Below, in pieces: positions 9,797 to 32,585 of a stretch of 52,755 nucleotides of DNA. Numbering within the stretch: the first letter of the stretch is position 1; every line of letters begins with the position of its first letter. The translations under genes were made by a program, and so were the position numbers. Source of the DNA: Trichomonas gallinae. Taxonomy: Eukaryota. The stretch covers positions 1 to 52,755 of the forward strand of contig MRSU01003035.1 in the NCBI GenBank assembly GCA_008369845.1. Direction: 5' to 3'. The notes beneath the pieces are model-generated. The model saw nothing but the letters and a program-made list of their open reading frames with translations. It searched no databases and was not told where the DNA came from.

Positions 9797-9824
9797 AGTT
9801 ATAGTATATTGAATGATCAAAATA

Positions 9825-12039: not shown

Positions 12040-12324
12040 TGCATGAGGCAAAGAATTGTCGTCAATAAAGCAGTAGCTTATGATGTAGTTTTCAATAATT
12101 TATTGCTATTCTTCAACATTATAATTCATATTTTCATAATTCTTTGAATTATATCAGTTATAGCAGTTAGCATATGCTTTGCAAGATCTACATCTTGGCA
12201 GCCTATGTTCATGCGTTTTCGTTAAATAATCAATTTCATTTCCCAAATAAGGCGCAAGTTCGAAAATTACTTGTGAATGCGCATGATTATTGACTCTATC
12301 AGATGGATTCTTAATATCTAGTTG
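12040..12324 (-). pseudogene. Sec23/Sec24-like zinc-finger region fragment
   Basis: Minus frame reads VIFELAPYLGNEIDYLTKTHEHRLPRCRSCKAYANCYN*...ISYCFIDDNS (cf. PRCxxCxAYxNP and the trunk YxFxID); several stops; second CxxC missing. Confidence 0.55.
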
Positions 12325-12670
12325 TTAATTAGATCAACCAGACCTCATCTATTCTTTGTCTTTGCAAAATATTTTTTTTTTGACATTCTGACAAAAATCA
12401 CATAATCTGGCAAATAAAGAGTTTTTATTTGTCAATTTCCCTAACACCTCAGATCATGAGATATATTTCGCCATCTTATTGTTGCATCGTGAATTGAGGG
12501 AAGTGAGGTGTTTCTGGGTTCATTATGTATAGTTTTAAATTAGATAAACCAAAACCCATCTAAATTTTTTTTTTTGACACAATGACAAAAATCACATATT
12601 TCTGACAAATAAATGGTTTAATTTTTTGACATTGACAAAAAAAATTTGGCGGGTTTCCTAAATAGCCTAA

Positions 12671-13294
12671 ATGGAAAACAAATATTCGAAGATTCCTGAC
12701 CCAACACCAAACGGAAAACGCCTTACTCAGCTTTTCCAGTCAAGCTCTGACTCATCGGTTCCATCATCACGCCAGCAATCGCCGTCTCGTCAGCCATTAA
12801 GATCGCCGATCAAAACTCCGTTAAGAGATGACTATTTATCACCATCGATTCCAAATTCTCCACTCGTCAAGGCAGTCTTGAAGTCACCAAGCACCTTCAA
12901 AAGATTGTTTTCGACAACTTTCATGTATTATTTCTCACTCTTCTTATTCTTATTCGCAGTCTCATTCGCTATTGGCCCAACATCCAGATGCCTCAAAGCA
13001 CGAAAGAATCCCAAACCAGAAATTTGCAATGATAAAGCAAAAATAAATTCATGGAGCGACGCCTTGAAGGAATTAAATCTTTTAAGCATCAGCAACAGCT
13101 CGCACACACTCAATGATGGTCATAATACAGAAGAAGTCGTCAAATGCTTCAATGGAGACTTCATTCTCAAGACAAACAACAAGATTTTGGTTTATAAGCT
13201 ATCAGACCACACTGAAATGATTTTCGGAACCTTGCTGATGATAATCACACTCTGTATTCACTTAATTGCTACCTATGGACATTACAACTGGTAA
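12671..13294 (+). CDS. Hypothetical two-transmembrane protein with an SP/TP-rich N-terminus
   Basis: 207-aa ORF; hydrophobic segments FMYYFSLFLFLFAVSFAI and IFGTLLMIITLCIHLIA. Confidence 0.75.
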   Translation: MENKYSKIPDPTPNGKRLTQLFQSSSDSSVPSSRQQSPSRQPLRSPIKTPLRDDYLSPSIPNSPLVKAVLKSPSTFKRLFSTTFMYYFSLFLFLFAVSFAIGPTSRCLKARKNPKPEICNDKAKINSWSDALKELNLLSISNSSHTLNDGHNTEEVVKCFNGDFILKTNNKILVYKLSDHTEMIFGTLLMIITLCIHLIATYGHYNW

Positions 13295-13558
13295 CAAAAT
13301 AATTGATTTGTAAAATATTGCTTATTATTCAATTTATCAATCTATATATTGTTGTATATATGCTTTATTACGCTTAATATCAAGCCAATATCTTTAATTA
13401 TCGATAAAATTATCAAAAAAAATTATCATATTGAATTTGATATGTAAGCAGCTAATACAGGTGCCACTTTGGCCAAATACACCTTATTTTGATAACTATT
13501 ACTGCATATTTGGTAAAATTGTCATGTAAAAAGCAATATTTGACGTGTAAAATAATTT

Positions 13559-13566
13559 TCATTTTT
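13559..13566 (+). promoter_or_regulatory. Trichomonad initiator (Inr) element
   Basis: TCATTTTT just upstream of ATG 13571; matches the TCA+1YT/A Inr consensus. Confidence 0.6.
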
Positions 13567-13570
13567 ATTT

Positions 13571-16500
13571 ATGTTTTTCACGCTAATTTTTGTTTGTTTT
13601 AGCGTGATGCAGCATTATTTTGTAAAAATAGACGTAGAAAATATAAATCCTGGATTCGCTGCTGTGTTTGACACTACCAAATCAACAGATTCAGATGATC
13701 CCGAATATTTAATAACAAACAAGCTACAAAATGCGAAAGAATGGAAACTTGACTGCACAGTAACAATGCCTCTTAATAATATTCACGTATATGAAAATGT
13801 TAAAAATTCAAATGAATCAAATAACTTCTTATTCATCCCTGATTACTTAATGAATGATAATATAATCGAAAAATACGTAAATCTAGGCTTCTCGCCAGTC
13901 TCAAAAATGTTAAAAAAACAAAGATATATTTTATCTTCCGAGGATCAACCAGGATACAGCATGCTTCCATACACATATTCAATATTACAGGCGCAAAGTT
14001 CAGCGATGGTGTATTCAAAGGCGGATTCTAACCACAAAAATCCAATTTGTCATAAATTAGATTTTTCATTTTACAAGAATATCTGCTACATTTCAGCCTT
14101 AATCTACACAGTTTTGATGATATTTAGACTTTATTATTACTATTTGCCAATAAATCTCAAAGATGATCTCGGATCTCGTTTCTGGTTCGTTTCGAAGTCA
14201 AAAATAGCGCTGACATCTCCAGCAAGACTCTCATATTCCGAGTATAGAGAACTTTACAAGCTCATTGACAAAGCAGAAGCATCAAATTCAAGTCAACAAA
14301 AAGTTCTTCGCATTTCGAGGACAAAAATCTCAACAGAGCTATACCATTTATTCGTTTATCCTATCTTTGACTACTATTTCGTTATTTATTGGGTTGAAAG
14401 ATACGCTGAAATCGCAGAACCGTTAAATACGATAATCGAAGGCTCACACGTTCAAATCGATGACTCCTATGAAACAGTTTCTCCTCCAATTGAAATTTCC
14501 TACAAAGATGGATATCCGCAAGCAGATATCACGCTAAAACACTTCGACAAATCGGCGAATATTCACATTTCATCTACTGTTTCCAATGATCTTCCATTTG
14601 GATCTTATTCTCTCCATCTCGCTTACATAGATTGTATGCATCTAGGAATCATTAATCAGATATCATATATTGCACCAACACAAGATGCATTCAAAGTATT
14701 CATCGAAAACATATTCAATAGACTTGATTTCGCTTCTCTTGACGTTATCACGATTACAGGAAATCATGTCGAAGAAATAATGAAATTCTACAGATATGAT
14801 GACATTCAGCCAATTGTTGACAGCATCATCCGCAAGATGCCAACGCACAAAGGTCCTTCTTCCATTTCTCAAAAACATATTGGTGATTACATGTTTATTA
14901 CTGACAGATTCCAAGTCGCAAATGTTGTTTATGTTGTCCTGACTGGGCAGATTGCAAATCATCTCAGTTTATGCGTTTCTGAAAATACTTTTCATTTTAT
15001 TATGTCATTGCTTGTTTCTTACCATCATTCTGTCCTTTCTACACGTGGAGATGCATGTTCATTGATGCGCGTTCAAAATCTCCTCGAAAGAACAGAAATT
15101 TTCTCATTAATTGAATGCGTTGGTTCTCCAAGCCACTTTTTGCGTGCAACAGGCAAACTTTACGATCTTACCATCAACCAAGAAGTCGTTGACAAGTTCC
15201 TAGCAAGGGTTTCCCCAGATGTCAGATCTCGACTAATTGCAACGGAAAATCGCCAAGAATTGAGCTCGTATGTCGTCATGTTCACTAGAGAAAATGGAAT
15301 GGATGAATGTGTGTCGATTTCTTCAACTTCTTATTTCGATGAAACTATTGCTCAAAATATTTACCTTTACTTAGTCGAAGATGTCTCTAGGTTCCACAGG
15401 CGTGCTCAGAAGCTCAGAGCAGCTCACGATGACTTTAAAATGGCATCAGAATTTCTTGGACTCCACAAAGTCTACAAGAACATGGCCCTGGCTCACCCCA
15501 CGCTCTTGTCCCTCGAGCTGGGCTACAACGGAATCATTGCATCGCTAAATGAAGTGATTTACGAGGAAGACAAAAATATTGATTTAAACAGCGAACTAAC
15601 GAACCAGATACAAGTCAACATCAGACTCGTTTCATCTCTCGGATATCCAATAAATTACTCTGTCATTAAGGCGGCATCTGATGGCAACTTCTTCATTTTC
15701 GCGCCAAGAGAGCTCAGACAGTTAAGAGCGATTTCTTCAGATGACTTAATCAAACAAGAATCAACAGCAAATGCATTGGAGTCAGATTTCGTTTTGATTT
15801 TATCGGATCTGACAAGCGACGATGCAACTGTTGTAGACTCAGCAGGCAAACTTCCTTCCACAGGCAACATCAAGGACATTATAAGTTTGTTGACAAACAA
15901 AGCTCCGCACGAAACTGTCAATACTATACAAGCGAAGATGCAGAATGTGAAAGATGGAACGATCGAATACGCAAGCTTCGACGCACAGCTTGCAGGAAAG
16001 ATAAAGACTATGACTTGGTATAAGTTTATTATAGCCGCGATGAACGACAAGATGATTCTGTTCGTCTACAACAACAACACAAAGAAGCAGAGCTTATTGG
16101 CGATGTCAGACATGATGAGGAAAGCGGAGAGTTTCTTGGGATCAACGAAAATGTTCTACTGGTTCTTCGAAGACGCGAACGAGCCAAAGAGGACGTTCAC
16201 GAAGCCCCCTATGGCCAGTGGACAGATAACTTTCAACTGGTCGTCGATAGAAAGCGTTATAAGAGAAGATGACAGAAAGAGAGTTTCAGATATAATAAGG
16301 AAAGCAATAGATATGAAAGGCGAAATCAACGCAAAAGTCGTTTTGACATTTGACAAGCCAAGAGAATACTTGCTGAGAGGTTCATATAACAATGACATAT
16401 TATGCGGCATTGCCACAAATGTCAATTGGATTTCTAAATCAATCAGAAAGACGAAAGATGCGATCGCTGAAGAAAAGAAGAACGCTGAAATAATGAAGGT

Positions 16501-16645
16501 CGTCAAGCATGAGAACAGACTGAGGATGTTCCAGATCGCTATGTGTTTGAAGGATATGGTCAGTGCAGCTGAAGATGTCGGATATGATGGAGATCTTGTC
16601 AATATTGTTGTTAATTCATTCGAAAAAGTTCAACAACTTATTTGA
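13571..16645 (+). CDS. Hypothetical 1024-aa protein with a signal-like N-terminus and one likely TM segment
   Basis: Long ORF with Inr; MFFTLIFVCFS leader; hydrophobic ICYISALIYTVLMIF; no catalytic domain recognised. Confidence 0.8.
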   Translation: MFFTLIFVCFSVMQHYFVKIDVENINPGFAAVFDTTKSTDSDDPEYLITNKLQNAKEWKLDCTVTMPLNNIHVYENVKNSNESNNFLFIPDYLMNDNIIEKYVNLGFSPVSKMLKKQRYILSSEDQPGYSMLPYTYSILQAQSSAMVYSKADSNHKNPICHKLDFSFYKNICYISALIYTVLMIFRLYYYYLPINLKDDLGSRFWFVSKSKIALTSPARLSYSEYRELYKLIDKAEASNSSQQKVLRISRTKISTELYHLFVYPIFDYYFVIYWVERYAEIAEPLNTIIEGSHVQIDDSYETVSPPIEISYKDGYPQADITLKHFDKSANIHISSTVSNDLPFGSYSLHLAYIDCMHLGIINQISYIAPTQDAFKVFIENIFNRLDFASLDVITITGNHVEEIMKFYRYDDIQPIVDSIIRKMPTHKGPSSISQKHIGDYMFITDRFQVANVVYVVLTGQIANHLSLCVSENTFHFIMSLLVSYHHSVLSTRGDACSLMRVQNLLERTEIFSLIECVGSPSHFLRATGKLYDLTINQEVVDKFLARVSPDVRSRLIATENRQELSSYVVMFTRENGMDECVSISSTSYFDETIAQNIYLYLVEDVSRFHRRAQKLRAAHDDFKMASEFLGLHKVYKNMALAHPTLLSLELGYNGIIASLNEVIYEEDKNIDLNSELTNQIQVNIRLVSSLGYPINYSVIKAASDGNFFIFAPRELRQLRAISSDDLIKQESTANALESDFVLILSDLTSDDATVVDSAGKLPSTGNIKDIISLLTNKAPHETVNTIQAKMQNVKDGTIEYASFDAQLAGKIKTMTWYKFIIAAMNDKMILFVYNNNTKKQSLLAMSDMMRKAESFLGSTKMFYWFFEDANEPKRTFTKPPMASGQITFNWSSIESVIREDDRKRVSDIIRKAIDMKGEINAKVVLTFDKPREYLLRGSYNNDILCGIATNVNWISKSIRKTKDAIAEEKKNAEIMKVVKHENRLRMFQIAMCLKDMVSAAEDVGYDGDLVNIVVNSFEKVQQLI

Positions 16646-16985
16646 GGAATAGATTATTATTCATTGTAAATGTTAGTTAATTTTATTTTTTTGAAATTGA
16701 ATTTTTTTTTTGTTTATCACTATAATAGCTTAAAAGCCTTCATTTTTATAGACGACAAAGAGATTATCATGCAAATTAAATCATTTTAATATGTTTCTGA
16801 AAATATTGAAAATTAAAAAATGATTAGATTTCATTTTTATGACTGTAATATTAGGTATATTAATGAGTGTGTCCATAATATAGGTTTAAATGTTAATGAA
16901 TTGGTTTTTTTCATGTAAAATTATAATGTCAGAAAATTATACGAAATGTGACGTGTAAATTGTCAGATTAGACTGCTTGTAAACA

Positions 16986-18935
16986 ATGGATCCTCTTCAA
17001 GCGGTCACTCAATCGATAAGTGCTGATGGAATGTTTGAGTTGAGGATCCAAGATGGCTCCCCAATCAATGTTCGTTGCACGATTCGATTTGTTTTCTTGA
17101 TTATAGAATCCGAACAAACGAAAAGCATTGCTTTCCTTCCAGAATATGGACCAGCTATTTTTGGAATAGAAAACACTGGAAATTCAATTATGTTTTCGCC
17201 ACTTGATGTTGATCTACATTCAATGTTTACGATTTCTTCAAAAGAATACTCGCTAATCCAAAATTTCTTTAATTATGCGTCAAACTCGTATCTTGTTATA
17301 AAGAAATTTTGCGATGTTATCGATCGTCCACTCGAGAAACAAGAATATCTCGTTTATTACTACGGTTTAAACAGTGTTGAGCGCCCGATTTGTTTAATAT
17401 TACGTGACAACAAACTAATTCTCGATGAAAATGAGACTGTTATCGATACAATTGAAATCACATCAAGAACAAAAATCACTTTATCAGACATAAGAATGGA
17501 ACCAATGTTTGGGGTTTCGAACAAAATGGGCCAAATTATATGGTTTCAGTCATTTAACATAACAAATGTCATTCATTGGTTTTTATCTATTTATTTAACG
17601 AAGCAATACGTCATTGAACAACAACAGAACCTTCTAAACAAAATAAAAATACCAGAAACAATCGAAACTATTGCATCTCCCGTTAAACAAATTCCGCAAA
17701 ATGTAAATCGTGTTTCTCTTGAATCAATGACACCAGTTAATAAGCAAAAAGAAGTTATTTCGAAGTCAACACCTGAACCCACATACAAAAAGGCTGACGA
17801 AAAGAAACTAGAAAGAAGAGAGGAATTGCAAAAACAGAATAATTCGCTTCTTTCGGTTCTAAGCATAAAGAAAACCCAATACAAGGAAAAAGTATGGATA
17901 ACAGAAGAAAAAGAACCGGAAATCTCTGTAATTCAACAAACATCATTTGAACCAGTTCAAAAAATCGAATTTCCGGAACTACGCCATAATCCTATTGATA
18001 AATCTACCTTATTGGAGATAATGAGCCAGAAATATTCATTTGCTAGACCATCTCCATCTCATTATCTTAAAAATCCTGTTAAAATACCAGGAACATTCAA
18101 GTTAAATCTTCCTTACAACGCCAACAGTCCATTCACATTCTTAAATAGATATAAAGACGCTGATCCACAATTAGCATATCAACTTCTAGTCAGTTTGGTG
18201 ATGTGTCAGTTCTGTGGGAAGTCTATACTAGACACATACAATGTAAAAGCGAACACATCTCTTCCGCAAGTCCAAGCAATGTATGTCGTTGATTATTATA
18301 AAAGCGATTTACCGTCTTATATATTGTCTCATCCTGAAATACTTAGCAATTACAGAATATCAGCACTTGTGTATGATAAAGAGCTCTTAAAGTCTCTTCC
18401 CAAGAAACAATTACAAAAAGTTTCAAGTTTTCAAGTACAATATTCTTTCCCGCATGATCCAATGAAAGATTTACGCACTTCAATGAACAATGCGCTGATG
18501 TCTGCACGTTTGAGGCAGTTTGATCCAATTAAAGTTTTCCAGGACTTCTCTCGTTCTTGGATTGCTGTTTTCCAGCACCACTGCAAGCAGAACCTGTTAG
18601 AGCCACTGTTTGTCAGACTCTCGACCGATATTGCGAGGAATAACGAGACGTGGAACATTTTTAGGGAAGAGTCGGAATTAAGACAGAAGTGGCCATTGTT
18701 TTTGCTGCATTCAATGAGAAACGAGAGAGTAGTTGAGAATCTTCTGGTGGCAATAAGTGCGCCACAGATTCTTCATTATTTCTACGACGACTGCGCGTTG
18801 ATAAGGAGGGACGACATCGTCGAAGAGCTGGTGTTTTACACCTGCGTATTCGCGAGCTTCAGGATCAAGATATCGAACAACGGAACAGTAGAACAGCCTC
18901 TTCCTGGTCCACAGTTCGATGCAATATTCAAATGA
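16986..18935 (+). CDS. Hypothetical 649-aa protein; possible PH-like N-terminal region and C-terminal RUN-like domain
   Basis: C-terminus KWPLFLLHSMRNERVVENLLVAISAPQILHYFYDDCALIRRDDIVEELV...FASFRI resembles the RUN C-terminal blocks. Confidence 0.7.
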   Translation: MDPLQAVTQSISADGMFELRIQDGSPINVRCTIRFVFLIIESEQTKSIAFLPEYGPAIFGIENTGNSIMFSPLDVDLHSMFTISSKEYSLIQNFFNYASNSYLVIKKFCDVIDRPLEKQEYLVYYYGLNSVERPICLILRDNKLILDENETVIDTIEITSRTKITLSDIRMEPMFGVSNKMGQIIWFQSFNITNVIHWFLSIYLTKQYVIEQQQNLLNKIKIPETIETIASPVKQIPQNVNRVSLESMTPVNKQKEVISKSTPEPTYKKADEKKLERREELQKQNNSLLSVLSIKKTQYKEKVWITEEKEPEISVIQQTSFEPVQKIEFPELRHNPIDKSTLLEIMSQKYSFARPSPSHYLKNPVKIPGTFKLNLPYNANSPFTFLNRYKDADPQLAYQLLVSLVMCQFCGKSILDTYNVKANTSLPQVQAMYVVDYYKSDLPSYILSHPEILSNYRISALVYDKELLKSLPKKQLQKVSSFQVQYSFPHDPMKDLRTSMNNALMSARLRQFDPIKVFQDFSRSWIAVFQHHCKQNLLEPLFVRLSTDIARNNETWNIFREESELRQKWPLFLLHSMRNERVVENLLVAISAPQILHYFYDDCALIRRDDIVEELVFYTCVFASFRIKISNNGTVEQPLPGPQFDAIFK

Positions 18936-19395
18936 AAAATAAGAAATATTATGTTTTTTGTTTAAAAAAAAAATAAAACTGTCGATGTTAGTAATAAGCA
19001 TCACTTTTTGAGTGGTCTGGATGTGTGACGGCATATTCGCACTGCATTTTTGTGTAACTGTTGTATCTTTAATCGAATCTCCAATTCGAGATAGATTAAA
19101 TGTGGAAAATTGAAAATTTGGAATAACGAAGTTTTGAATGAAAAGTCGATTTTCAAAAGATTACATTAAAATAGGTGGGAAATTTTTAAAAATAGTAAAA
19201 TCGAGCTGCACGTTGAAATTGTTCAAATATATAAAAACAGTTTTGAGATTGATTTATTATTTAAAATATCTATTTTCAGTGAAGATTGTAGATGCACAAA
19301 TTGTCATGAACAAATAAAGACTAAAAACAGCTATAAAAATTTTAAAAATATGTTTAATAAATCCAGCACTTTCAAATGATTAGAATTACTTTTTA

Positions 19396-19629
19396 TCATT
19401 TTTTGTTGCGTTCAAGCCATTCTTTTTCACATTTATCAGAATAGTCAAGCTTTTTCTTCAGCACTTCATCGGATATTGGGTCAGGGAAGAACTGTGGGGT
19501 TGGGACTCCTCTTTTGGCATTTCTATCTTCAAAATGATATGTTGGTGGAAGATCTGCGATGGAGTCGACATACTTTTTTGCCGCACGAAAATCACTAACA
19601 AACTTCTTCACACTAGAAAACGCAGACAT
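19396..19629 (-). CDS. Small hypothetical protein, 77 aa (MSAFSSVKKFVSDFR...)
   Basis: ATG at 19629 preceded by Inr-like TCATTTTTCAAA; coding-like composition. Confidence 0.7.
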   Translation of the reverse strand: MSAFSSVKKFVSDFRAAKKYVDSIADLPPTYHFEDRNAKRGVPTPQFFPDPISDEVLKKKLDYSDKCEKEWLERNKK

Positions 19630-20045
19630 TTTGAAAAATGAAGTGTTATTTTGAAAGAAAACTTTGGATTCCTCTGAAAAAGTCACAATGATTTTTCCAA
19701 ATAATATTTATTTGCTTAAAATTAGGGCGCAATAAATAATGATAGAACTAAATAAGCCAAAATCAATATCTATTGTTATATTTATCAAATAAATTTTCCA
19801 CGAAAATAGATGATCCAAAAGGAATAAACCTGAACCAATATTTTTTTTCAAGCAGAAGTCGACTTGAAAATTATATATAATTTTGTGTTTGTATATCAAT
19901 TATATATCAATATTCAATATTCATTATTAACTGTTTCAATAAATGAAGCGTGAATTTGAAACATCGATCAATTAGGAAAAAAAATAACAAATTTATATAA
20001 AACATATAAGGGAAAAAAAATCTATTAAAAAAAATAATATGATTA

Positions 20046-23000
20046 TTATAGGATACCTATCTTGTGGAGAGTCTCGCTAAGATTCTTCGCATCTTTGTCT
20101 GCTTCAATATCAGTCAAAATTCGGCTGCTGAACGATTTGTCAATCACGGCGGAAATGCTTTCTTTAGAATTATCTATGTTAGATTTTCTCGTTGAAGCAA
20201 ATGTGGAACTATCTGCCTCCTTGATGATATTCATTAGTTTAGAGTGGAGTCCCATGCAATCTCTCTCAGCAAGAGTCCTGTGGACTGAATGAAGCTCAGT
20301 GAGGTGAAGCAATTCGCGGAGCTTAACTTTCGCGCTTTCGTCTTTCTGCGTCTCTCTGTTTCCTGTCTTCATGATCAAGTTCACGTACTCCTCGATCTTG
20401 TGCTGGTTGAGTGAAACGATCTCCCTGGAAATCTTTATAACATCATTAGCCAGTTTCTGTCTTTGTGAAGAAAGCTCGTCGAGAATTTTCTGCTTATTTT
20501 CTTTTTCGGATGTATTTTTGATTAATTCTGCCATTTGCGACAGCATTTTTTTGCGTTCGTCCTTGAGACTCATGTATATAGAAGCAATAGTAGACTGTTG
20601 ATTTGCCAGCAAAAGATTGAGCGGAACTTTAATTGTTGGGCGTGGAACATTTTGATTATAATATAAAGTCGGCATTTTTTGGGTCACTGTGTAATACTTT
20701 ATATCTACTTCGCCGTTGCATTCTTGTATTGTTTGATGAATTGTGATTTGTCTCTTTAATTGGATAAATTTCGAAAGATTTTGCAAAGCTTGGAAATAAT
20801 AGAGCAAATGGGCCCTCTGATCACAGTCGAAGATCTCTGACCATTGTATAAAGGATGTCACCGCTTCTATTGCATTATAATCATTTATTGTCTTAATTCT
20901 TTTAATTTGATCTAAAAATGATGAATCTGCTTGTTCCGTGGCAACAATGGCTTGAGACACTGCTTGTATTTTCTGTAAAATGGCATCAAGTTTGAGACCA
21001 CCTTCAGATATGATCTTATCCCAAACTGAAATTAAATGATTGAGTTTTTCTTCATCTGAGAATCTTTTGTTGACTAATGATGCATCTAAGAGCAATTTTG
21101 AGTGATTATCTCTGATAAATCCTTGTGAATTGAACAACAGAAATTGAGATACGAAATAATCTGCAATTAAGTTGATATTTATTGATCTGACCATGAGTTT
21201 CGGGAATATATTCATCTTTCTTTGCTCATTCATTATAATATCGAAGACTTCATCAAATAAATTTGCAAATGAAATTATAATGTAAAGTTTTTCAAAACAA
21301 TCGACATATTGAGCTTGTTTCTCTACAGGGAGATCGTGGCAGTTTTGAAAAGTGAGAATTAACAATTGATATAAATTTGAATAAGTTAAACGACCCAATT
21401 TCATTGATTTGACGAAATCTATGACAACTTGTGAAGTAACCGAATGAATTAAAGAATCTAAAATGCCAGATACATTAATAATTTTGAATTTATAATAATT
21501 TTGCACGAATGATTCTGAAAAATCTGTGTCAATAAATAAACTATCGTCGTATGAAATGAATAATTCCTTTGTTTTCATTATTTCAAAAATAATTTGTAAT
21601 TCAACTGATTTCATTGATAATTTTGTATTAAAGTCAATATAAAATTTTGTAGGAGCTACTTGGCTCTTTAATGATTTGGCCAATTCTTCGATATATCCAG
21701 TAGGTATTCTTCCTGAATTTAATTTTTTGATTTTTCGAACAATCTCGATTAAATCGTTGACAATTGGTGACATCTCAGTGTTTTCCCTGACTTGGCTCAA
21801 CTGGTTAAGCTTAGAACTTGGATCTGTGAATGTTAAAATATCATTAATAACATTTAAAGCTAAAATGATTTCTTGTGTCAATTCTGGATGATTAAAGGAG
21901 ATTTGTAGCAGTTTCAATGGCTCCATTTTTATGTCAGAAGAGATTTTAACTCGCGTAATTTCTGTTTTAGTGTCTGCTTGAGAGCAGAGCGTGTTAATAC
22001 ATTCGCTAAGACACTTAGATGGGTCATTTTGAATTAGATGTTTATCAATTTCCTTGTTTTCAGAAATAATTGAATTTTTCGAATTCAAAAACGTAAGATG
22101 GACCAAAATAGAATAGCAGGATATTCCAATAACATCGCAATATAAGTATAATTGATGCAAAGAGAACAAAATTTCGAGTAATGAATTTAATTGTTGAAGT
22201 TTTTGATCTGTTTGTGGTGCATTCATAATAGCAGTATCTAATATCGAAAAGCAATGCAATATTTGATAGAAATCAAGAGGTTTCGTTGATATTTTTTCTT
22301 CTAAATAATTTAATTGAGGATATTGATTGGAAACTTGGCTTGAAATTGCTGACATTTCATTAATGATGTTCTTAATGTTTGGAATAATCATTGATGTTGG
22401 TGATATATTAGAATATGATGGATCAAATATTTTAATTCCGTAAGCTTCGATTTCTGAGGCCAAACATGTAATGAAATCAACTGACATGTTATCAATTGAT
22501 TTCTTGAATGAATTATTTTGTCCTAATTCTAAAGAAATTTCGAGAGATGGATAATTAAATGAAGGATAAGGAAAAGAAAAAGCATTGCTTTGTATCAAGT
22601 CGATAATTTTTGACATTGAGTCTATTAAAGGCAGAAAAGGTGAAATAATCTGCGAAGTATCAAGAATTAAGTCGATAATATTATTAATCAATTTCATTTT
22701 TGGTTTTTGAGCTGTTATGAATGTGTTAATCCTTCTGCTTGCTTCTAAGATTAATATAAATACGTCTTCTGGGGCGTTTCCTGATGTTATTGCAAATGAA
22801 CAATTATAAAAAATCAAAATCTCTCTTATGAACACATTTTTGTAGTCAATAGCATTACCCTTGGCCATTAGAGCAAGAATCATCATGAGTTTCTTCAATT
22901 TGAAAAGATTATGATAAAACATTGCAATATAAGGAGTTACATTAAAAGTATTGAGGTATTCGATAATATGTCCAACTACGTCTGTCAAAATCTGCAGTGT

Positions 23001-24020
23001 AATTGTTGATTTACCGATTAATTCGAATTTTTTTGATTGTAAATACGATTCTAATGAAGGATTTGGCGATGTGTCATCTAATTCTATTAATCCTTGGAAA
23101 CAGCCAATAAATTGCGAGAATTGAATATCAGTAATGTTGCTTTTAGTGAATTGAATTTTTCCAATTTCAGAATGCTGAAGATATATGACTTGGTTGTCGG
23201 ATATCAAGGCTTCAAAATCGATCATCATTGAGATTTCTTCTGGACTTTTCGAATATAACAAAGCAGAAAAAATCATTGAATATTTAAATCCGACAAGAGC
23301 TAATTTGAGGAATCCAATAAGTATTAGGATGTTTGTAAACTGTTCGCAGATAGATTTAAAATGCTTTCTTGTCGATGAAGCAAAATTGTCTATAATTCCG
23401 TAAGCAAGGCCTCTTAAACCATAAATTTGCTTAAAGGTCTCATTCAATTCAGCTATAGTTCCAACACTTTCGAATTTGTTCAGTATTGCTGCTGCTTTTT
23501 TGCGATTTTCTTTTATAACTTCGAAATTTAGATCGGATTTGACCATTTTTTCGATTGCTGCGATCGACGCTTTCATTTGTTTTAGAGTATTAGTCCATAA
23601 ATCGTGGAAAGAAATGGCTCTGTAAGGCGAAAATATCGACACGCATTGTTTTGCGATTTTTTGGCACACATCCTTAATTTTTGCAATACTTAGCGAATTT
23701 GTTTCGAGTTCTTGCATGATTGAAGTGAATTTATTTGATAAAATGTAGAATTGATTTTTAGAATCCTTTGAAAGAAAGACATTTTCATTGATGAGGAATG
23801 TATGATTGTATAATAGCTTGAAATGCGTAAGAATATAATAGTAATTCAAGAATTCCGGGGTATTTTTTAAAATTGAAATATTTTGGTGGAAATCTTCAGC
23901 TTTTTCCAGTAATTCTTTCATAGATTGGCCCACAAACATCTCCATCAACACTTGGTCGAATGTGAATTCCATTTGCAACCTTGATAAAGAACTTAAAATA
24001 TCATTCGTATTAGAACTCAT
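20046..24020 (-). CDS. Hypothetical 1324-aa helical protein with a C-terminal coiled coil
   Basis: Long uninterrupted ORF; no family recognised. Confidence 0.8.
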   Translation of the reverse strand: MSSNTNDILSSLSRLQMEFTFDQVLMEMFVGQSMKELLEKAEDFHQNISILKNTPEFLNYYYILTHFKLLYNHTFLINENVFLSKDSKNQFYILSNKFTSIMQELETNSLSIAKIKDVCQKIAKQCVSIFSPYRAISFHDLWTNTLKQMKASIAAIEKMVKSDLNFEVIKENRKKAAAILNKFESVGTIAELNETFKQIYGLRGLAYGIIDNFASSTRKHFKSICEQFTNILILIGFLKLALVGFKYSMIFSALLYSKSPEEISMMIDFEALISDNQVIYLQHSEIGKIQFTKSNITDIQFSQFIGCFQGLIELDDTSPNPSLESYLQSKKFELIGKSTITLQILTDVVGHIIEYLNTFNVTPYIAMFYHNLFKLKKLMMILALMAKGNAIDYKNVFIREILIFYNCSFAITSGNAPEDVFILILEASRRINTFITAQKPKMKLINNIIDLILDTSQIISPFLPLIDSMSKIIDLIQSNAFSFPYPSFNYPSLEISLELGQNNSFKKSIDNMSVDFITCLASEIEAYGIKIFDPSYSNISPTSMIIPNIKNIINEMSAISSQVSNQYPQLNYLEEKISTKPLDFYQILHCFSILDTAIMNAPQTDQKLQQLNSLLEILFSLHQLYLYCDVIGISCYSILVHLTFLNSKNSIISENKEIDKHLIQNDPSKCLSECINTLCSQADTKTEITRVKISSDIKMEPLKLLQISFNHPELTQEIILALNVINDILTFTDPSSKLNQLSQVRENTEMSPIVNDLIEIVRKIKKLNSGRIPTGYIEELAKSLKSQVAPTKFYIDFNTKLSMKSVELQIIFEIMKTKELFISYDDSLFIDTDFSESFVQNYYKFKIINVSGILDSLIHSVTSQVVIDFVKSMKLGRLTYSNLYQLLILTFQNCHDLPVEKQAQYVDCFEKLYIIISFANLFDEVFDIIMNEQRKMNIFPKLMVRSININLIADYFVSQFLLFNSQGFIRDNHSKLLLDASLVNKRFSDEEKLNHLISVWDKIISEGGLKLDAILQKIQAVSQAIVATEQADSSFLDQIKRIKTINDYNAIEAVTSFIQWSEIFDCDQRAHLLYYFQALQNLSKFIQLKRQITIHQTIQECNGEVDIKYYTVTQKMPTLYYNQNVPRPTIKVPLNLLLANQQSTIASIYMSLKDERKKMLSQMAELIKNTSEKENKQKILDELSSQRQKLANDVIKISREIVSLNQHKIEEYVNLIMKTGNRETQKDESAKVKLRELLHLTELHSVHRTLAERDCMGLHSKLMNIIKEADSSTFASTRKSNIDNSKESISAVIDKSFSSRILTDIEADKDAKNLSETLHKIGIL

Positions 24021-24164
24021 AAAAAATAATAAATATATTTTTAATATAATATTTTTTGTTCTTTATATCCTTGAAAATGAAAGTCTGCAGTCTATATATA
24101 TTACTTTTTTCAAATCAAATATCTTTACAAAACTCAAACTTTTCTTTATCAATTATTTTACAAA

Positions 24165-24227
24165 GGTTACAGGGCCTCCGACCCAGGACAGAACCTCAAC
24201 AGGCTCCGCACTAGGTTTAAGGTTCCG
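24165..24227 (-). other. GC-rich ~60-nt hairpin element (candidate small RNA or cis-element)
   Basis: Minus strand ACCTAG-T-GCGGAGCCT[GTTG]AGGTTCTGT-C-CTGGGT folds as a 15-bp hairpin with G-U pairs, set in otherwise very AT-rich DNA. Confidence 0.4.
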
Positions 24228-24728
24228 ACATGTAAAGTTTACATGACAAAAGTTATGTAATGAAAGTTGTATCGAAACGAGAACTTGATAATTTTTGCGT
24301 GAATCATTCTTGTTAACTAGACATTTTTATCATAATCGCTATGAACAAAAGTTATGGTTTTCTATTTTTCGAATATTAGCGAATTTAGCAAAAATAATTT
24401 AAGAATATATATTCAATGAACAGAATTCAAGGGGTGTCTAACGAGCAATTCGATACTCTGTGGGGAGATATTATTAATGGCGAAAAATAAAATTGAGCAT
24501 CCTAAACAATGCATTTTTTGAAGTTTTTTGTACAAAAATAGCAGTGTCAGATTTTTTCAATAGTCTACATATCGTTTACAGTTTACCCTGCTGCTCTATT
24601 AAAATGCATGATGTTGTAAACAGAAAAAAAAGATTTGAGTGACTCTATTATTTGTAAAGTGTCGATATGTCAAATCCTTATTTCTGTTTATGATAATGAT
24701 AACAGGTGTCAAGAAGTGATATGTTTAC

Positions 24729-26876
24729 ATGTCAAATCAGACATGTAAAATGCAAAAGAAAACTATAAAACAGGGGAGACCCTGCTTATTTTTAAATCTT
24801 ATTATGGAATTAAAAAGTGGGAAATTCATGGAATTAAAGCTAATGAAAATGATATTTCCACAACTAGAATCGATCAGGCTTGAAAGAAAACTGACTTGTT
24901 CTGTTGATGGAAGGCCAGATGTTGTAGATTTTAATTTAATTGGCCCATTTGTCTTTTGTAGTGGTGTTAAGCCATCAAATCTTCAACTAATCATATATAT
25001 ACCGCATTATTCCGTGTCATTAAACAAGAAAGATCACGTTTTAAATTTCCTATCTTTATCTCCTTTTGGATCAACAGAAATCAAATTTTTTGTCCCAAAG
25101 GAGTTCAATATTTCGAGTATACATAAGCTTATTATCAAAACAACACAAATGCTTTACGAAATTGATCCAAAACGAATTCCACCTCTTTCAATATTACCGA
25201 AATGCTATAATCTTACAACTCATACGATGCATCCAATGGAAATAAACGCTATTGAATCAGAATTAGTTCTTAATTTTGAACAGAAAACAAAATATTATCT
25301 CGAAAAGCAAAATATAAACATTCTTACAGCTCAAGACTTAATTGGTATTCCAAAGGAATATTTCTATGTTTCATTTATGATAGTATTTCGTAAATTAAAT
25401 GAATATTTGATTGTTTGTGATTCAATTGATCAATTTATGTTTTCTTTCATTACAATTGACTTCAAAATATACTCAATATCAAACAGAAAGACAGCAATAC
25501 CAATAAAACTAGCTGTGCCTTTCCCAAAAAAGAACCAACTGATTTGCGAAAATATTAATTTTGTTTCTGAGATTAATGATCCGATGCAACATAATATTTC
25601 AACAACACTAGACTTAAAGTATATAGATTCAATACCTGTTCCTATGAAAGCTGCAGAAAATTTGGAAATATTAAATTTCAATAACAAAATTAGCAGAACA
25701 ATTTTATTACATTCGAGTTTAAACCATAAAAATCAACTTTACGACACCAAAATCATTGAAAGTCAGATCCCTGATGTTTTTATTTCCAAAGCTTTTGAAG
25801 AAGAAATCCAAAATATTCAAAATCAAATTGATACTACACAAGAAAGCATCAAAATCAAGCCTTTACATGAAAATTATCCATCCAGAGAATTCATGACTCA
25901 AAGCGGGTCAGAACTCAGTGCTGTGATGTACTTTAGACCGATTGCCGATCCAAAACTGATATTTTTGTGCCAAAAGATAGGAATTCCATTCGAAAATCCT
26001 GTTTTTTCTATGAATGGCGAAGAAGAACTTAATCAGTTGAGTCGCCAAAAGACATTGAATAACATGGCAATTTTAGTTGCTTCCATTTTAATCAATGGAA
26101 CAACTGATGTAATATTTTTGTCAAAAATTCCACAAATATGCAACAACGATCAATCGATAATGAACTGTCTGCCTACTACTGATATCTCGCCTTTCTCAAA
26201 AATAGCTATTTTCATCGCACGATTGATTAAATCTCTTCGCTTGCAGAAATTCATACAGATGCTGTCGTCTAGCTTCGATCTCAGAAAATCATTATATCGG
26301 GAAGATGGAATGTGTTCTAGTACTTTATTTCTCGAGCAGTTGAAGTCTAAAGTAACAGTTTACTTTTCAAAGCAGCAGCCACTTAATAATGCTTATCCTC
26401 TTCCTTTTGCGAATAGAGAAAGATACGAATACTTGATTAGGTCAATTATTCCAAAGGCGAGAGAAGATGAAAATTCTGCAATTCAGCTTATTTTCTACAT
26501 CGTCCAGTTCTTCATGCAGAAGATAAAAGACCCGAGTAAGCTTATCGAGATTTTATCTACGACTATACAGTCAATAGATGACGAAAATCAGCGCGTGATG
26601 ATGGTCGCATCAATTTCTTCGGCGATGAAAAACAAGCAGTCGATATTAGGTAAATTCGCGTTTACATTATTGAAAGGCCTCGAATGCGGTCAGTTGTATC
26701 TATGGATTTTATACTTAGGGAAAGATATAATGAAAAACAAGCATTTTTACAATGCTGAAGCTCCAGCAGCAAATATTGAAAACATTGTAATAATTTCTGA
26801 TTCACTCTTCAAACTCTCGGGAGTGATGTTTGACATCAATCCCAACTTACTCAACAAATATTCTGTTTTTAAATAA
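24729..26876 (+). CDS. Hypothetical ~700-aa protein with tandem C-terminal RUN-like domains
   Basis: GKFAFTLLKGLECGQLYLWILYL...KHFYNAEA...LFKLSGVMFDI and an earlier similar block SKIAIFIARLIKSLRLQKFI...SLYREDG; true start may be a downstream Met. Confidence 0.7.
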   Translation: MSNQTCKMQKKTIKQGRPCLFLNLIMELKSGKFMELKLMKMIFPQLESIRLERKLTCSVDGRPDVVDFNLIGPFVFCSGVKPSNLQLIIYIPHYSVSLNKKDHVLNFLSLSPFGSTEIKFFVPKEFNISSIHKLIIKTTQMLYEIDPKRIPPLSILPKCYNLTTHTMHPMEINAIESELVLNFEQKTKYYLEKQNINILTAQDLIGIPKEYFYVSFMIVFRKLNEYLIVCDSIDQFMFSFITIDFKIYSISNRKTAIPIKLAVPFPKKNQLICENINFVSEINDPMQHNISTTLDLKYIDSIPVPMKAAENLEILNFNNKISRTILLHSSLNHKNQLYDTKIIESQIPDVFISKAFEEEIQNIQNQIDTTQESIKIKPLHENYPSREFMTQSGSELSAVMYFRPIADPKLIFLCQKIGIPFENPVFSMNGEEELNQLSRQKTLNNMAILVASILINGTTDVIFLSKIPQICNNDQSIMNCLPTTDISPFSKIAIFIARLIKSLRLQKFIQMLSSSFDLRKSLYREDGMCSSTLFLEQLKSKVTVYFSKQQPLNNAYPLPFANRERYEYLIRSIIPKAREDENSAIQLIFYIVQFFMQKIKDPSKLIEILSTTIQSIDDENQRVMMVASISSAMKNKQSILGKFAFTLLKGLECGQLYLWILYLGKDIMKNKHFYNAEAPAANIENIVIISDSLFKLSGVMFDINPNLLNKYSVFK

Positions 26877-27205
26877 AATTTTTGTTTGTATTTTAGTAAG
26901 CTGCAATTACTTTTAATCAACAAATTTAACAATATTATAAAAAAAACATTATTAGAATAGTTATTCTTCAAAATTTAGTAATGATTCTAATTCCTTGATT
27001 GAACAACATAACTGTATTATATGCACCTTCTTAAAATATCATTAGCTTGCAATCAATTGCTCATTATTAATATAGTGTTTCATCGATAATATAAATGATC
27101 ACAAGCTTCGGAATAAGATTTGTTACTGAAGTAATAAAATCTAAAGAAATTTCATTTGTTGTGTGTATATGAATAATATATGTACGTAACAAAATGTTCT
27201 ATACT

Positions 27206-29902
27206 TTATTCTTGTTCAATACATGATTTAACTTTCTTCAGCATGATGTGTCTGAGTGTCTCACTTGGCACAGTCATTCTTGCCTCAGAAATGAACTCTA
27301 TAAGGACGTGCTCATAATCCTCCTTTGTATTAGCTTCAAGGAGAAGCTGGATGCAGATTTTCATGTTCTGCAATGAAATGATTGGAATTCTCTCGCATAA
27401 CATTGATGCGAGGACATTGATTGTACCTTTGATATTGTCAGTATCATCAAACAAACTGACTTGAACTCTCTCTGCGGAAATGAAAACAAACAGCTTGATA
27501 ATGTATCTGATTATCGTATCCAGACAGAACTTGTGCGAAGGCTCTGTCGCAATGAACATCATCGTTGACATAACAGGAAGCAGGAAACTCCTAAAGAATC
27601 CCTGTCTGTCTCCTTCCCTCAAATTCATGTCAGCTTTAGTGACAGTGTTTTCGATTGCATTGATTGCAGATGTGATGGCTGTTTGATCCTGGCACTGAAC
27701 TAGGTCCAATAAGAAACCCATGTCTGTCTCGAGATTACACGGGTCACCTTCAAGAGAGATTTGGAAGTAGCCCTGTATGTATGCGTTGATGACACCAGGA
27801 ATCAAATACTGGAATGTTGGCTCTGGGAAGTCATCATCAGCAATCATCTGCTTTGTTGGGTCAATGATGAGCTGGTGGATTTCTTGTGCTTCTTCTGGCT
27901 TCAATTCGAGCTTCAACAATGCTTCCGCCAACTGCAATGCCTCGATTTGTCTGATCGATGGTGCTGAGTTTGCATAGATCGACAAAATTGGCTTGCACTG
28001 CTTGATACCTGCAGTCTTGAACAAAACTGTTGCTGTCCTGCAGAAAGCGTACATCTCCTTTTCTTCATCATGACCGCTCAGATCGTGAAGTGGTGTCAAA
28101 TGTGTTTCAAAATCTGTTAGCAAAATTGTCAAGTCTTCAATCATTCTTGATACGATTTTAGATATGTATCCTGGATCAGCCTTAGCAAAGCCAAGAAGGA
28201 TGGCAAGCACGAAATGAGTGTGGACAACTACATCTTTGTTGTTCTGGAAATCTTTTGTGGCTGTCCATCTTTCTAAGGCCATGTCGACGAGTTTTGACAA
28301 TTTCGATTTCGCGTGATAAATTTTTCCGAAACCTTCGCAGACATCTGTGTAAACGTCAGGTGCCAAAATGACATTGTTCATGATCAAGTCTGTCAGATCG
28401 GGCAGATTCGTAACTAATGAGGCACAGTTTGATCCAATCGCGAGAATTGTGTTTGCAGACATCTTTCGCAAATTCTCAGAAACTAAGCCTGTTGTCGCCA
28501 AATTCAATGCGATCGATATAAACTGTGGAGTGAGTTTTTGAGCTTTAGCGTAAGCAGCCACCAAGTAGAGGAAGCAGGCGGCTACAACTGAATGTATCTC
28601 TTTTGTCAATTTAGAGTTCTTAAAAGCCTGAAGAATGAACTGGAGAGACTCGACGACGAAATGTCCTTCGACGACTGAACCTGTAGCTCCTGTGATGCAT
28701 GCAATTGACCAGATGACAGACAAAAACAGCTTCGGCTTGAAGACGCTGTTGAGTTCGTTGAATATTCCTGCGACAGCTGGCATAACTTTTTCTGGCTCCA
28801 TTGTCAGAATTGCGACGAAAATGTTGCGGAACTGCGAATATTCGAGCATCGCATTTTCGTCGAGCGATGTATCGCCTTCTCCTGGCAAGATGAAGCCTGG
28901 TGGCTGTGGCATGTTCCTCAAGACGTAATCTCTTAAGTGACCAAATAGTTCTTGGTATAAAGTGAATCTGTCGAGCCTGGATTCGGTTTTATATGTCTCG
29001 AAAACTCCTAAGATGAAATTTTCCCAGAAATCAAGATGAGTCTGAAAGTCGAGCTCTGCAATTTTGTTGAGGACTCCTCTGACGTTGGCCAGCTGCTCTA
29101 CTTCAAGTACTTTTGCGTGCTTAATCAAAACTGGGCAGATGCTGTTGAATACCTCTTCTGAAGGCAAATTTTCGATCATCGAGCATAGATGAGGGAAAAC
29201 CATTTTAATGATTTCTGGTGTGCATCCATCGATGCAGATAAGTGTGCACAACAATGCAAATACCTGGGGGTCTTGGTTTTGGCCAAGAGAGTTGAATTTT
29301 GCAATATCAACATCTTCCCATTTAATGTAAGGCAAAAATGCATCAAGAGCACGCTTCGCGTCATTACTTGGAACAGCATCAATGCAAGCACTGATAATTG
29401 GCTTCTTAAATCCAAGCATTTTGTCGTGAATTTGTTTTAATTTTGCTGGTGTAATTTTCGTTGAGTCAGAATCAGTAACCTGTAGTAAAAAGTTGGCAAG
29501 CACACCGAAATTGCCTGCTGGTGCTGATAAAATGTCTTCAAAGAATGCGGGCCATTTTTCTGGGAAGTCTTTGATAGCAATATTAGCGAGAATGTTCGAC
29601 AACTGTCTATTGATGACATTTGAATGTGATTGTAAGTTATTTATAATGAATGATCTCATGCCTTCTTTCATTCCTGGATTTAATCCATCCCAATTGTTTT
29701 CAACGCATTTGCTAAGAACTATACACGCGACATTTTCTACTTGTTCATTGCCGACGCCCATTAATGCTTCAACATAATTTATAGAATCTTCAGCATCGAC
29801 GAATTCAGCAAGAAAAGCAAGGCATTCCTGTTGACGACGTGAATTCGGATCATATGCATCGCTGACGCGGCTTATAACGTTTTGTACAGTATAATCAGTC
29901 AT
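27206..29902 (-). CDS. Divergent exportin-1/CRM1-like karyopherin
   Basis: Importin-beta N-terminal-like region (VLSKCVENNWDGL); LSNILANIAIKDFPEKWPAFFEDI; LRDYVLRNMPQP...EYSQFRNIFVAILTME and LSVIWSIACITGA...EGHFVVESL parallel CRM1 HEAT 9-11. Confidence 0.75.
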   Translation of the reverse strand: MTDYTVQNVISRVSDAYDPNSRRQQECLAFLAEFVDAEDSINYVEALMGVGNEQVENVACIVLSKCVENNWDGLNPGMKEGMRSFIINNLQSHSNVINRQLSNILANIAIKDFPEKWPAFFEDILSAPAGNFGVLANFLLQVTDSDSTKITPAKLKQIHDKMLGFKKPIISACIDAVPSNDAKRALDAFLPYIKWEDVDIAKFNSLGQNQDPQVFALLCTLICIDGCTPEIIKMVFPHLCSMIENLPSEEVFNSICPVLIKHAKVLEVEQLANVRGVLNKIAELDFQTHLDFWENFILGVFETYKTESRLDRFTLYQELFGHLRDYVLRNMPQPPGFILPGEGDTSLDENAMLEYSQFRNIFVAILTMEPEKVMPAVAGIFNELNSVFKPKLFLSVIWSIACITGATGSVVEGHFVVESLQFILQAFKNSKLTKEIHSVVAACFLYLVAAYAKAQKLTPQFISIALNLATTGLVSENLRKMSANTILAIGSNCASLVTNLPDLTDLIMNNVILAPDVYTDVCEGFGKIYHAKSKLSKLVDMALERWTATKDFQNNKDVVVHTHFVLAILLGFAKADPGYISKIVSRMIEDLTILLTDFETHLTPLHDLSGHDEEKEMYAFCRTATVLFKTAGIKQCKPILSIYANSAPSIRQIEALQLAEALLKLELKPEEAQEIHQLIIDPTKQMIADDDFPEPTFQYLIPGVINAYIQGYFQISLEGDPCNLETDMGFLLDLVQCQDQTAITSAINAIENTVTKADMNLREGDRQGFFRSFLLPVMSTMMFIATEPSHKFCLDTIIRYIIKLFVFISAERVQVSLFDDTDNIKGTINVLASMLCERIPIISLQNMKICIQLLLEANTKEDYEHVLIEFISEARMTVPSETLRHIMLKKVKSCIEQE

Positions 29903-30478: not shown

Positions 30479-30694
30479 ATGAGCTCGAAGGATAAAAGCC
30501 ATAAACACAGTCACAACTCCAAGCCCGAAAAGGACTCAAAGCATGACAAGAGCAGCAAGGATAAGAAGGATAAGAAATCCAAGAGAGATCATGAAGAACC
30601 AGACATGGGTCCAGTTCCACAATGGGCAACACTTCCTATCAATAAAAACGATGATCCATTCCGCGATGACTTCGAAGTTGAAATTAAATTCTAA
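30479..30694 (+). CDS. Small Lys/His/Asp-rich hypothetical protein, 71 aa
   Basis: ATG with Inr; coding-like codon usage. Confidence 0.7.
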   Translation: MSSKDKSHKHSHNSKPEKDSKHDKSSKDKKDKKSKRDHEEPDMGPVPQWATLPINKNDDPFRDDFEVEIKF

Positions 30695-31236
30695 TTTCTC
30701 CGAAAATATTACGGCATAACAAGGTTGAGTAAAAAATGTTTATTGATAGCATGCTGCTACTGCTTAGTATTTCATCCTCTGCAATACTCATCTAAAAGTA
30801 CCTATCCCTGAATAGGTTTCAACTTGCAAGGACTTTTTATATTATTTACAATTTTTTATCTGAACTTTGGATGCCAAATATCTTTTATTCTTTATGCTTC
30901 CTAAGCCAATGAATTATTATAATGTGATAACGAAAAATTATATTTCATTTTTTTATTTTAGAGTTGAGCTTAAATCTTATATGAAAACATCGTTAATTTT
31001 TGTCATATATTGATAATCTATAATGATTTAACGCAGATTTATGATTTCAATTCTGAATAATAAATAATGAAGCATAAGTACATAATATTATTGGAATTAT
31101 ATGTTATACATATAGTTTTAGCTGCAATAATTCTGTTGTAATTGCTTTAAAATGAAGATTTTGCTATGTTTTAGATTTTTTTAGTTTGTTTTTGACGTTT
31201 TGACGCTTTACAAAATTTATATTATAAATCAGTACG

Positions 31237-31521
31237 ATGATTGGATTAGTACGGTTTAATTTCTAACAAGCAGTGGTCTCTCATCTACGGCATTATTCTC
31301 ATCACTAATGCTGTCTGCATTTTAAACCAGGAAAGATTCTTAATGACATGTTCAGTTTTATTTTCTAACAAACAGTTGGTTTGAACTATTCTCCAGAAAC
31401 AACAGATGCTTCTCTTAAGGGAAGAATCGCGCTCATGATTTACAAATTCCAAAGCGTTTGCAAGTTCCCATTAATCATCTTAAACTCCTACATAATTGTC
31501 TACGACTTCTTATTCGGTTAA
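31237..31521 (+). CDS. YOS1: Yos1/IER3IP1-like ER-Golgi membrane protein, 77 aa; exons 31237-31248, 31274-31349, 31376-31521
   Basis: Spliced product MIGLWSLIYGIILITNAVCILNQERFLMTFGLNYSPETTDASLKGRIALMIYKFQSVCKFPLIILNSYIIVYDFLFG* has the Yos1 signatures NAxxILNxERFL and PLIxxN...LxG-end. Confidence 0.88.
31249..31273 (+). other. Spliceosomal intron 1, 25 nt
   Basis: GTACGGTTTAATTTCTAACAAGCAG: GT...TCTAAC(N3)CAG; its removal puts ATG 31237 in frame. Confidence 0.8.
31350..31375 (+). other. Spliceosomal intron 2, 26 nt
   Basis: GTTCAGTTTTATTTTCTAACAAACAG; its removal joins the two Yos1-like halves in frame. Confidence 0.88.
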
Positions 31522-31862
31522 ATGGAAAGTTTTGTACTATATATGACTAAAATGTTACATTTTGATCTTCATATCCAAATATCATTTTTCTATTCAGTGC
31601 TTAAAAAACTCAAAATCTGAAAAGAATTATAAGTTTACTGATAATTTCAATGATTTTAGGCAAAAGAATGGCTTTTTTTGAAAAATATTTTAAACTTAAT
31701 AATAATTTGATGATTTATTCCATGAAAACTAAGGATTATGATAGTTGCGATGAGTAATAATGATATGACGCATAATTAAAGATTGATTTGTGATATTATA
31801 ATTTTTGTCAATATATATTTTACATGGCAAAAATATAAATTTGAAAATGTGTACGTTTATAA

Positions 31863-32585
31863 ATGCAGCAAGCGATTCGTGTATTTGAGGAAAATGCAAA
31901 GCAAGCATCATGTTCTCTGGAAGAAATTGAAGCTAGAGCTAGCTCAGAATTCCCTTCTGCTGCTCCAATATTAAAATTATGCCAAAGATTACGAGAAGCC
32001 AAAATTCGATATCAAATTTTATTTGAAAACATCAGTAAAATACAAGATGCTAATGAAAACCTTCAAAAATGCATTGCAAGTGATCTGATGCCAACTGCAA
32101 AACAAGTTAAAGCAGCTTGTGCACATGAAGGAGTACAAGTTCCTTCAATAATTCCAGAACAAGTCACAAAACAAGCAATATTAAAAGCTGCAACACCAGC
32201 ACCAACACCAACAACAACGACACAGGCGGCAGCAGCAACAACAACTACAACTACAAAGTCGAAGTTACCACAACCGAGAAAATCAAGGAAATCTGAGCCT
32301 GCAAAGCCGCAACATGAATATATTGAGATTACAGATGATGAATTTAACGCTATACCTGATTATCTCAGAAGATCAGTTAAAATTGATGAACTTCGCCAAG
32401 TACATCAATTCATTTTCAATTTCTTCTACGGATCAGCAAGAGAAGAAGAATCTATGCCAAGAAAAGAGTTTCTCAATATTGAAAATAGTGCAATCAAAAG
32501 GAAAATAGAATCAGTGTTGAAATGCTTGAAATACATAAAGAAGATCCAAATGGATAGGTCCAATAACGTTATCCAATGTGTATAA
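31863..32585 (+). CDS. Spindle and kinetochore-associated (SKA2-like) protein
   Basis: N-terminal FEENAKQASCSLEEIEAR...PILKLCQRLREAKIRYQIL resembles the Ska2 coiled coil; C-terminal ITDDEFNAIPDYLR resembles the Ska1-type winged helix; Thr/Ala/Pro linker between them. Confidence 0.6.
   Translation: MQQAIRVFEENAKQASCSLEEIEARASSEFPSAAPILKLCQRLREAKIRYQILFENISKIQDANENLQKCIASDLMPTAKQVKAACAHEGVQVPSIIPEQVTKQAILKAATPAPTPTTTTQAAAATTTTTTKSKLPQPRKSRKSEPAKPQHEYIEITDDEFNAIPDYLRRSVKIDELRQVHQFIFNFFYGSAREEESMPRKEFLNIENSAIKRKIESVLKCLKYIKKIQMDRSNNVIQCV

Follow-up and report, generated by a model that had tools for sequence, protein, structure and literature searches.

In yeast, Yos1p, Yip1p and Yif1p are described as partners in a complex essential to transport between ER and Golgi, and the human family member, IER3IP1, is a protein of 82 amino acids with two predicted transmembrane segments (PMC11335259). 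The yeast YOS1 gene contains two introns and is reported as one of 10 such genes (PMC3287188, PMC4227748, PMC3946582), and an intron set for the Saccharomycetaceae includes 36 entries for YOS1 (PMC4202332). For the trichomonads, the published catalogue contains 63 single-intron genes in Trichomonas vaginalis and 81 intron-containing genes in T. stableri, three of which possess two introns (PMC12316389). None of the multi-intron candidates reported as tested in T. vaginalis was confirmed (PMC13548475). The type-B introns of these organisms are 23–28 nt in length with GT-AG ends and a TCTAAC motif that is fused to the acceptor (PMC6260720, PMC13548475 Table 2). Their branch A is reported 7–8 nt from the end, and a loose donor is tolerated (PMC6260720). 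Heterogeneity is described at +5 to +7, with wider variation in T. stableri, and many small trichomonad genes keep introns of this type (PMC12316389). The closest described gene is TsBTPI-3_002403 of T. stableri, one of the three two-intron genes, which is annotated as 'Yos1-like' from an RNA-seq assembly with exons of 26, 76 and 240 nt and type-B introns of 25 and 26 nt, and which is listed with phase 0 and 'Tvag_G3 conserved: No' (PMC12316389 S2 Table). The intron-containing genes common to T. stableri and T. vaginalis exhibit a mean identity of 91% (PMC12316389).

The sequence analysed here, referred to as the window, is a 52,755-nt stretch of Trichomonas gallinae DNA (contig MRSU01003035.1, forward strand). 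The original prediction stated that no ORF is called at 31237–31521 and that excision of two very short introns from this segment, each with TCTAAC at a fixed distance from CAG, would produce a Yos1 protein with a 12-nt first coding exon. None of the 24 ATG-initiated ORFs of at least 40 aa found between 28000 and 35000 overlaps this segment, and removal of the two introns listed in Table 1, which carry different donors as had been claimed, leaves 77 codons and a product of 77 aa. The 127 GT/GC-AG intervals within 31150–31620 give rise to 944 enumerated one- or two-intron products, among which the 77-aa product ranks fourth in length and first among those spliced at both TCTAAC-3-nt-CAG acceptors; each of the three longer products needs at least one acceptor outside both motifs. 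Retention of intron 1 yields only 9 aa, retention of intron 2 yields 40 aa and skipping of exon 2 yields 6 aa, so both introns must be removed.

Table 1. Features of the Yos1-family gene in the window and intron-like stretches of its distant homologue L001
Feature	Position	Strand	Characteristics	Basis
Initiator-like element (candidate)	31229..31233	+	TCAGT; ends 3 nt before ATG	Sequence; putative role
Coding exon 1	31237..31248	+	12 nt, 4 codons	Splice enumeration
Intron 1	31249..31273	+	25 nt, phase 0, type-B-like, donor GTACGG	Motif; T. stableri length; L001 position
Exon 2	31274..31349	+	76 nt; Yos1 profile positions 2-25	Pfam PF08571
Intron 2	31350..31375	+	26 nt, phase 1 in codon 30, donor GTTCAG	Full type-B consensus; gap in X1 contig
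Coding exon 3	31376..31521	+	146 nt including TAA; Yos1 profile positions 40-81	Pfam PF08571; ESM Atlas
TAAA over stop codon	31519..31522	+	Candidate UAAA polyadenylation signal	Sequence; putative use
L001 intron-like stretches	2403-2426 and 2503-2525		Both start GTATGT and end TCTAATTTCAG	Predicted

The family assignment of the product is based on Pfam scans in which each exon was submitted alone, with the gathering threshold of 27 bits as the cut-off. Both exon 2 (E 8.5e-8, 32.8 bits) and exon 3 (E 2.8e-8, 34.3 bits) exceed this value against the Yos1 family (PF08571), as the HMMER comparison proposed with the original prediction had anticipated. A search of the ESM Atlas with exon 3 returned Yos1 clusters in its top three rows, the best at 0.90. 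Kyte-Doolittle analysis in 19-residue windows identified hydrophobic peaks near the N-terminus (1.9) and the C-terminus (1.5), and a chain of 77 aa with two hydrophobic ends has the size and, as judged by hydropathy, the layout of Yos1/IER3IP1. Word-index protein searches with exon 3 provided nothing at 25–83 aa or 84–2000 aa, a result that argues weakly against the existence of a close annotated Yos1, and a structure search found no solved structure for the protein. Alignment scans with exon 2 produced 254 pattern matches from viral contigs and 101 from prokaryote genomes, and none of these proved to be a relative.

Both introns resemble the trichomonad type-B class in their length, their GT-AG ends and the fused box of TCTAAC, 3 nt and CAG, with the branch A located 7 nt from the 3' end. 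The difference lies in intron 1, which carries G at +5 and G at −4, fails the published strict pattern GTWYWD ... TCTAACH(1,2)AACAG for this reason and is therefore designated type-B-like; this pattern is a search filter. Against 60 dinucleotide shuffles of the window, the strict pattern is matched once (intron 2) compared with no match in any shuffle, and a relaxed motif is matched three times (both introns and one site elsewhere) compared with 0.33 +/- 0.62 and a maximum of 2. The count of the 12-nt branch/acceptor box alone is not significant, with two matches against 0.85 +/- 0.96 in the shuffles. A stronger argument than these counts is that both boxes fall within 285 nt and join two Pfam-significant pieces in profile order. 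The suggestion that more small spliced genes are hidden is not borne out within the window, where a motif search for further hidden introns identified only a 23-nt type-B-like motif at 10812-10790 (−). This motif lies inside a 488-aa Tub-domain ORF, its removal would shift the frame and it was judged a chance occurrence. For T. vaginalis the same suggestion gains the indirect support described below.

The gene shares with T. stableri TsBTPI-3_002403 its three exons, the 76-nt middle exon, a 25-nt followed by a 26-nt type-B intron and a Yos1-like product, and the two-intron layout predicted for the window was thus already present in the published intron lists. The T. stableri gene differs in its species and in its gene neighbourhood, and the comparison covers layout and product, as the table is without sequence. 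A type-A-intron gene is located approximately 28-30 kb upstream of T. stableri Yos1, and no motif matching it was found in the window. The gene described here is an orthologue-like match to the published T. stableri gene that encodes a conserved housekeeping protein, and it is mostly ordinary. Yos1 is missing from all 63 T. vaginalis rows of S2 Table (PMC12316389), and it was not found in PMC13548475 with text terms or in five supplements. A full-text search found no article pairing Yos1 with Trichomonas; it missed the S2 row because supplements were outside its scope. The word Yos1 is absent from the listed literature on intron position and loss, nothing on the Yos1 gene appears in the available portions of PMC13735942, PMC12289875 and PMC10711314, and the available portion of a Giardia intron paper makes no mention of it.

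Three sequencing runs were compared with the window, and only one (X1), which is merely presumed to be RNA and derives from a relative rather than from the window's organism, covers the gene. An X1 contig with a depth of 60 spans 31274-31545 minus exactly the 26 letters at 31350 that constitute intron 2. Over Yos1 this contig differs from the window by three other letters, and the two that are listed are synonymous. All eight of the X1 pieces listed (of 54) over 9801-29800 fall inside ORFs, and the piece at 27211-29898 is nearly the whole of the ORF at 27206-29902, with 97 differences in 2590 letters. A further piece, at 31805-31841, lies between genes and is loose at either end. X1 behaves like RNA of a relative, with a small remaining probability that it represents DNA from a lineage in which intron 2 has been lost. 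No contig in the three runs bridges intron 1, and the first base of exon 2 is where the X1 contig starts. The comparison with spliced RNA proposed with the original prediction bears out the removal of intron 2, in a probable RNA run of a relative, and provides no bridging contig for intron 1. The start of the contig at exon 2 and its end 26 nt past TAAA were considered as transcript ends and rejected, because contigs cannot show ends. Elsewhere in the window, an X1 contig bridges 205 nt at 12303-12509; the ends of the skipped segment are TG..GG and the interval contains unknown letters, a pattern that is not spliceosomal.

A distant homologue was identified by a phmmer search with exon 3 against 1.84 billion representatives, which returned a single match (P0006) with 47% identity. 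The DNA encoding it was recovered from metagenomes as two contigs, L001 and L002, from at least 595 pattern matches, and these are identical over 5168 nt and were therefore counted once. L001 is predicted to contain a 15-nt exon 1, a 24-nt phase-0 GT-AG intron, a 76-nt exon, a 23-nt phase-1 intron and a 146-nt exon that together encode 78 aa, and both exons used for the profile comparison are above the Yos1 cut-off. Both predicted introns are at the same codon positions and phases as those in the window gene, with 76 nt between them, so that the proposed comparison of intron positions with other eukaryotes finds the same two positions in L001 under predicted splicing. Aligned without gaps, the two genes share 17 of 25 aa in exon 2 and 22 of 47 in exon 3, and shifting the exon 2 alignment by one or two codons leaves only 1-4 matches. 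At third codon positions, agreement is limited to 12 of 25 sites in exon 2 and 18 of 48 in exon 3. The L001 introns differ from trichomonad type B in their TCTAATTTCAG ends, in a branch A located 6 nt from the end and in a variant box within 23-24 nt. The neighbouring L001 genes, including one for a condensin II subunit, are uninterrupted, and TCATT precedes the Yos1 start (one of four starts checked), which suggests that L001 is derived from an intron-poor parabasalid. Both introns were likely inherited from an ancestor common to T. stableri and the L001 organism.

The S. cerevisiae gene YOS1 (YER074W-A) also resembles the window gene in its Pfam family, similar size and three exons. Its first intron and that of human IER3IP1 presumably fall in phase 1 and directly precede the conserved glycine after the ERFL motif, as does intron 2 here. 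Human IER3IP1 likewise belongs to the same Pfam family, is of similar size and has at least three exons (PMC11335259). The introns of the window gene are far shorter than those of both relatives.

We are highly confident that this locus is a three-exon gene encoding a 77-residue protein of the Yos1/IER3IP1 family with a predicted ER-to-Golgi role, whose 26-nt intron is missing from the transcript-like contig of a relative and whose 25-nt intron is likely removed. The absence of a contig bridging intron 1, together with a donor and acceptor that are off the strict consensus, would also fit a gene in which only intron 2 is spliced, with the intron 1 segment retained or untranslated and the protein truncated or started elsewhere. 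This is very improbable, as retention ends translation after 9 aa, the Yos1 match begins at the first residue of exon 2, exon 2 offers no ATG before its 24th codon, and the 25-nt first intron is recorded by RNA-seq in T. stableri and has a counterpart at the same position in L001. Intron 1 could alternatively be spliced, alone or as a minor form, at an in-frame tandem acceptor (AAG) at 31270, 3 nt upstream of its end, which would make it a 22-nt intron and the product 78 aa. We consider use of this site just as improbable, since it would place the branch A just 4 nt from the end compared with the 7-8 nt reported for type B and the middle exon is 76 nt in both T. stableri and L001.

A pseudogene in decay, or motifs that happen to fall in this order in AT-rich intergenic DNA, would account for the lack of a called ORF, the 12-nt motif that is not over-represented and the empty word-index searches. 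It has been largely refuted by the X1 contig, the T. stableri row and L001, and its probability is negligible beside an intact frame of 77 codons, two Pfam matches, the precise 26-nt gap, synonymous differences in the relative and codon-position-biased conservation with L001. A separate question, compatible with the three-exon gene, is whether the introns are ancestral ones that have survived by chance in a small gene or are kept by selection, for example if inefficient splicing tunes Yos1 output. The presence of both positions in a distant homologue and the standing of YOS1 among the two-intron genes of yeast and in the Saccharomycetaceae set favour selection, yet these introns of 25-26 nt show no evident regulatory element and type-B introns are kept in many small trichomonad genes; we regard selection as rather unlikely, though worth considering.

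For the three-exon gene, a simple course of expression may be proposed. Transcription would proceed from the Inr-like TCAGT, which we take to be an imperfect match to the trichomonad Inr consensus. The reduced trichomonad spliceosome would then read the fused branch/acceptor box, together with a loose GT donor, in each 25-26-nt intron, with intron 1 removed at 31273. UAAA is described as the T. vaginalis polyadenylation signal (PMC13548475), and polyadenylation may be directed here by the TAAA that overlaps the stop codon. By analogy with yeast, where Yip1/Yif1 act in ER-Golgi traffic (PMC11335259, PMC10655558), the predicted product would act with Yip1/Yif1 in this pathway.

The gene at 27206-29902 (−) encodes a divergent CRM1/exportin-like protein that is 69% identical to TVAG_490230 of T. 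vaginalis G3, the best named of five matches. None of 10 window proteins had an exact counterpart in the protein collection, and these findings fit a trichomonad other than T. vaginalis G3, likely a Trichomonas species. On the other side, Yos1 is adjoined by a SKA1-like ORF at 31863-32585 (+) with an E value of 5.7e-6 that is below the Pfam cut-off and is covered by X1 contigs. A lysine-rich ORF of 71 aa at 30479-30694 (+), preceded by an Inr-like element at a distance of 11 nt, gave no Pfam match and may be another small unannotated gene. The 119-aa ORF at 8024-8383 (−) features only an XPG N-terminal domain (E 6e-14), with likeness that stops near residue 82; no type-B intron is evident at this break, and the ORF is probably a truncated Exo1/XPG-type fragment. 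A 1443-aa BspA-type leucine-rich-repeat protein is encoded at 2162-6493 (+). The BspA-type family is expanded in trichomonads.

The T. stableri Yos1 gene (5.540 Mb, +) is located between 002388 (5.511 Mb, −) and 002436 (5.609 Mb, −) (PMC12316389 S2). Agreement in exon sizes, in product and in the length and phase of the intron points to TVAGG3_1019300 (chr_I 20.399 Mb, +) and TVAGG3_1017660 (20.152 Mb, +) as their apparent T. vaginalis orthologues, so a T. vaginalis Yos1 is expected between these two genes on the minus strand. Row 19 of S3 Table lists an 'inactive' type-B intron of 25 nt on the minus strand at chr_I:20,320,422-20,320,446, described as 'not assembled, low coverage' with no gene named (PMC12316389). 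Its relative position in the interval is 0.32, compared with 0.29 for T. stableri Yos1, and the chance of one of the 14 type-B entries falling in the interval on this strand is approximately 0.009, or 0.023 for all 34. Given the occurrence of intron 19 at the syntenic place, T. vaginalis probably carries a Yos1 that has escaped annotation and may contain two introns. We consider it fairly likely that intron 19 belongs to Yos1, and give equal weight to T. vaginalis Yos1 having kept both introns or not. Only tentatively, and with somewhat less than even confidence, we propose as a whole that a three-exon T. vaginalis Yos1 lies at chr_I ~20.32 Mb with intron 19 as its second intron, that Yos1 introns are among the last survivors in the independently intron-depleted trichomonads, budding yeasts and Spironucleus, and that the position of intron 2 is as old as eukaryotes. 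Among these, S. salmonicida is recorded with 43-nt introns (PMC6679479 supplement).

Judged by eye, intron 19 differs from intron 2 of the window by a single letter; this likeness was discarded as evidence, since CG13 and CG14 are equally close. TVAG_490230 is located on a 26.08-Mb record that is shorter than the chr_I coordinates in S2, and the window's own gene order therefore gives no support to the T. vaginalis locus. TGATGA-like and CTGA sequences are motifs of box C/D snoRNAs. Words of both kinds occur in the long type-A 'inactive' entries of S3 Table, many of which, at 100-137 nt, appear by eye to be near-identical between T. vaginalis and T. stableri, and these entries may be snoRNA-carrying introns of non-coding hosts (PMC12316389). 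Another type-B entry without a named gene (S3 row 20) is on chr_II (PMC12316389).

The layout of this gene was already published, and what is new here is the conservation of both intron positions in a distant homologue and a precise prediction for T. vaginalis. Filters based on a strict motif drop a probable intron, as is the case for intron 1. Two introns of approximately 25 nt around a 76-nt exon constitute a compact natural substrate for the reduced trichomonad spliceosome. The gene also points to one exact locus in T. vaginalis that probably conceals an overlooked gene of the secretory pathway, and if the prediction is true, T. vaginalis Yos1 would be a multi-intron gene in a species that is reported to have none.
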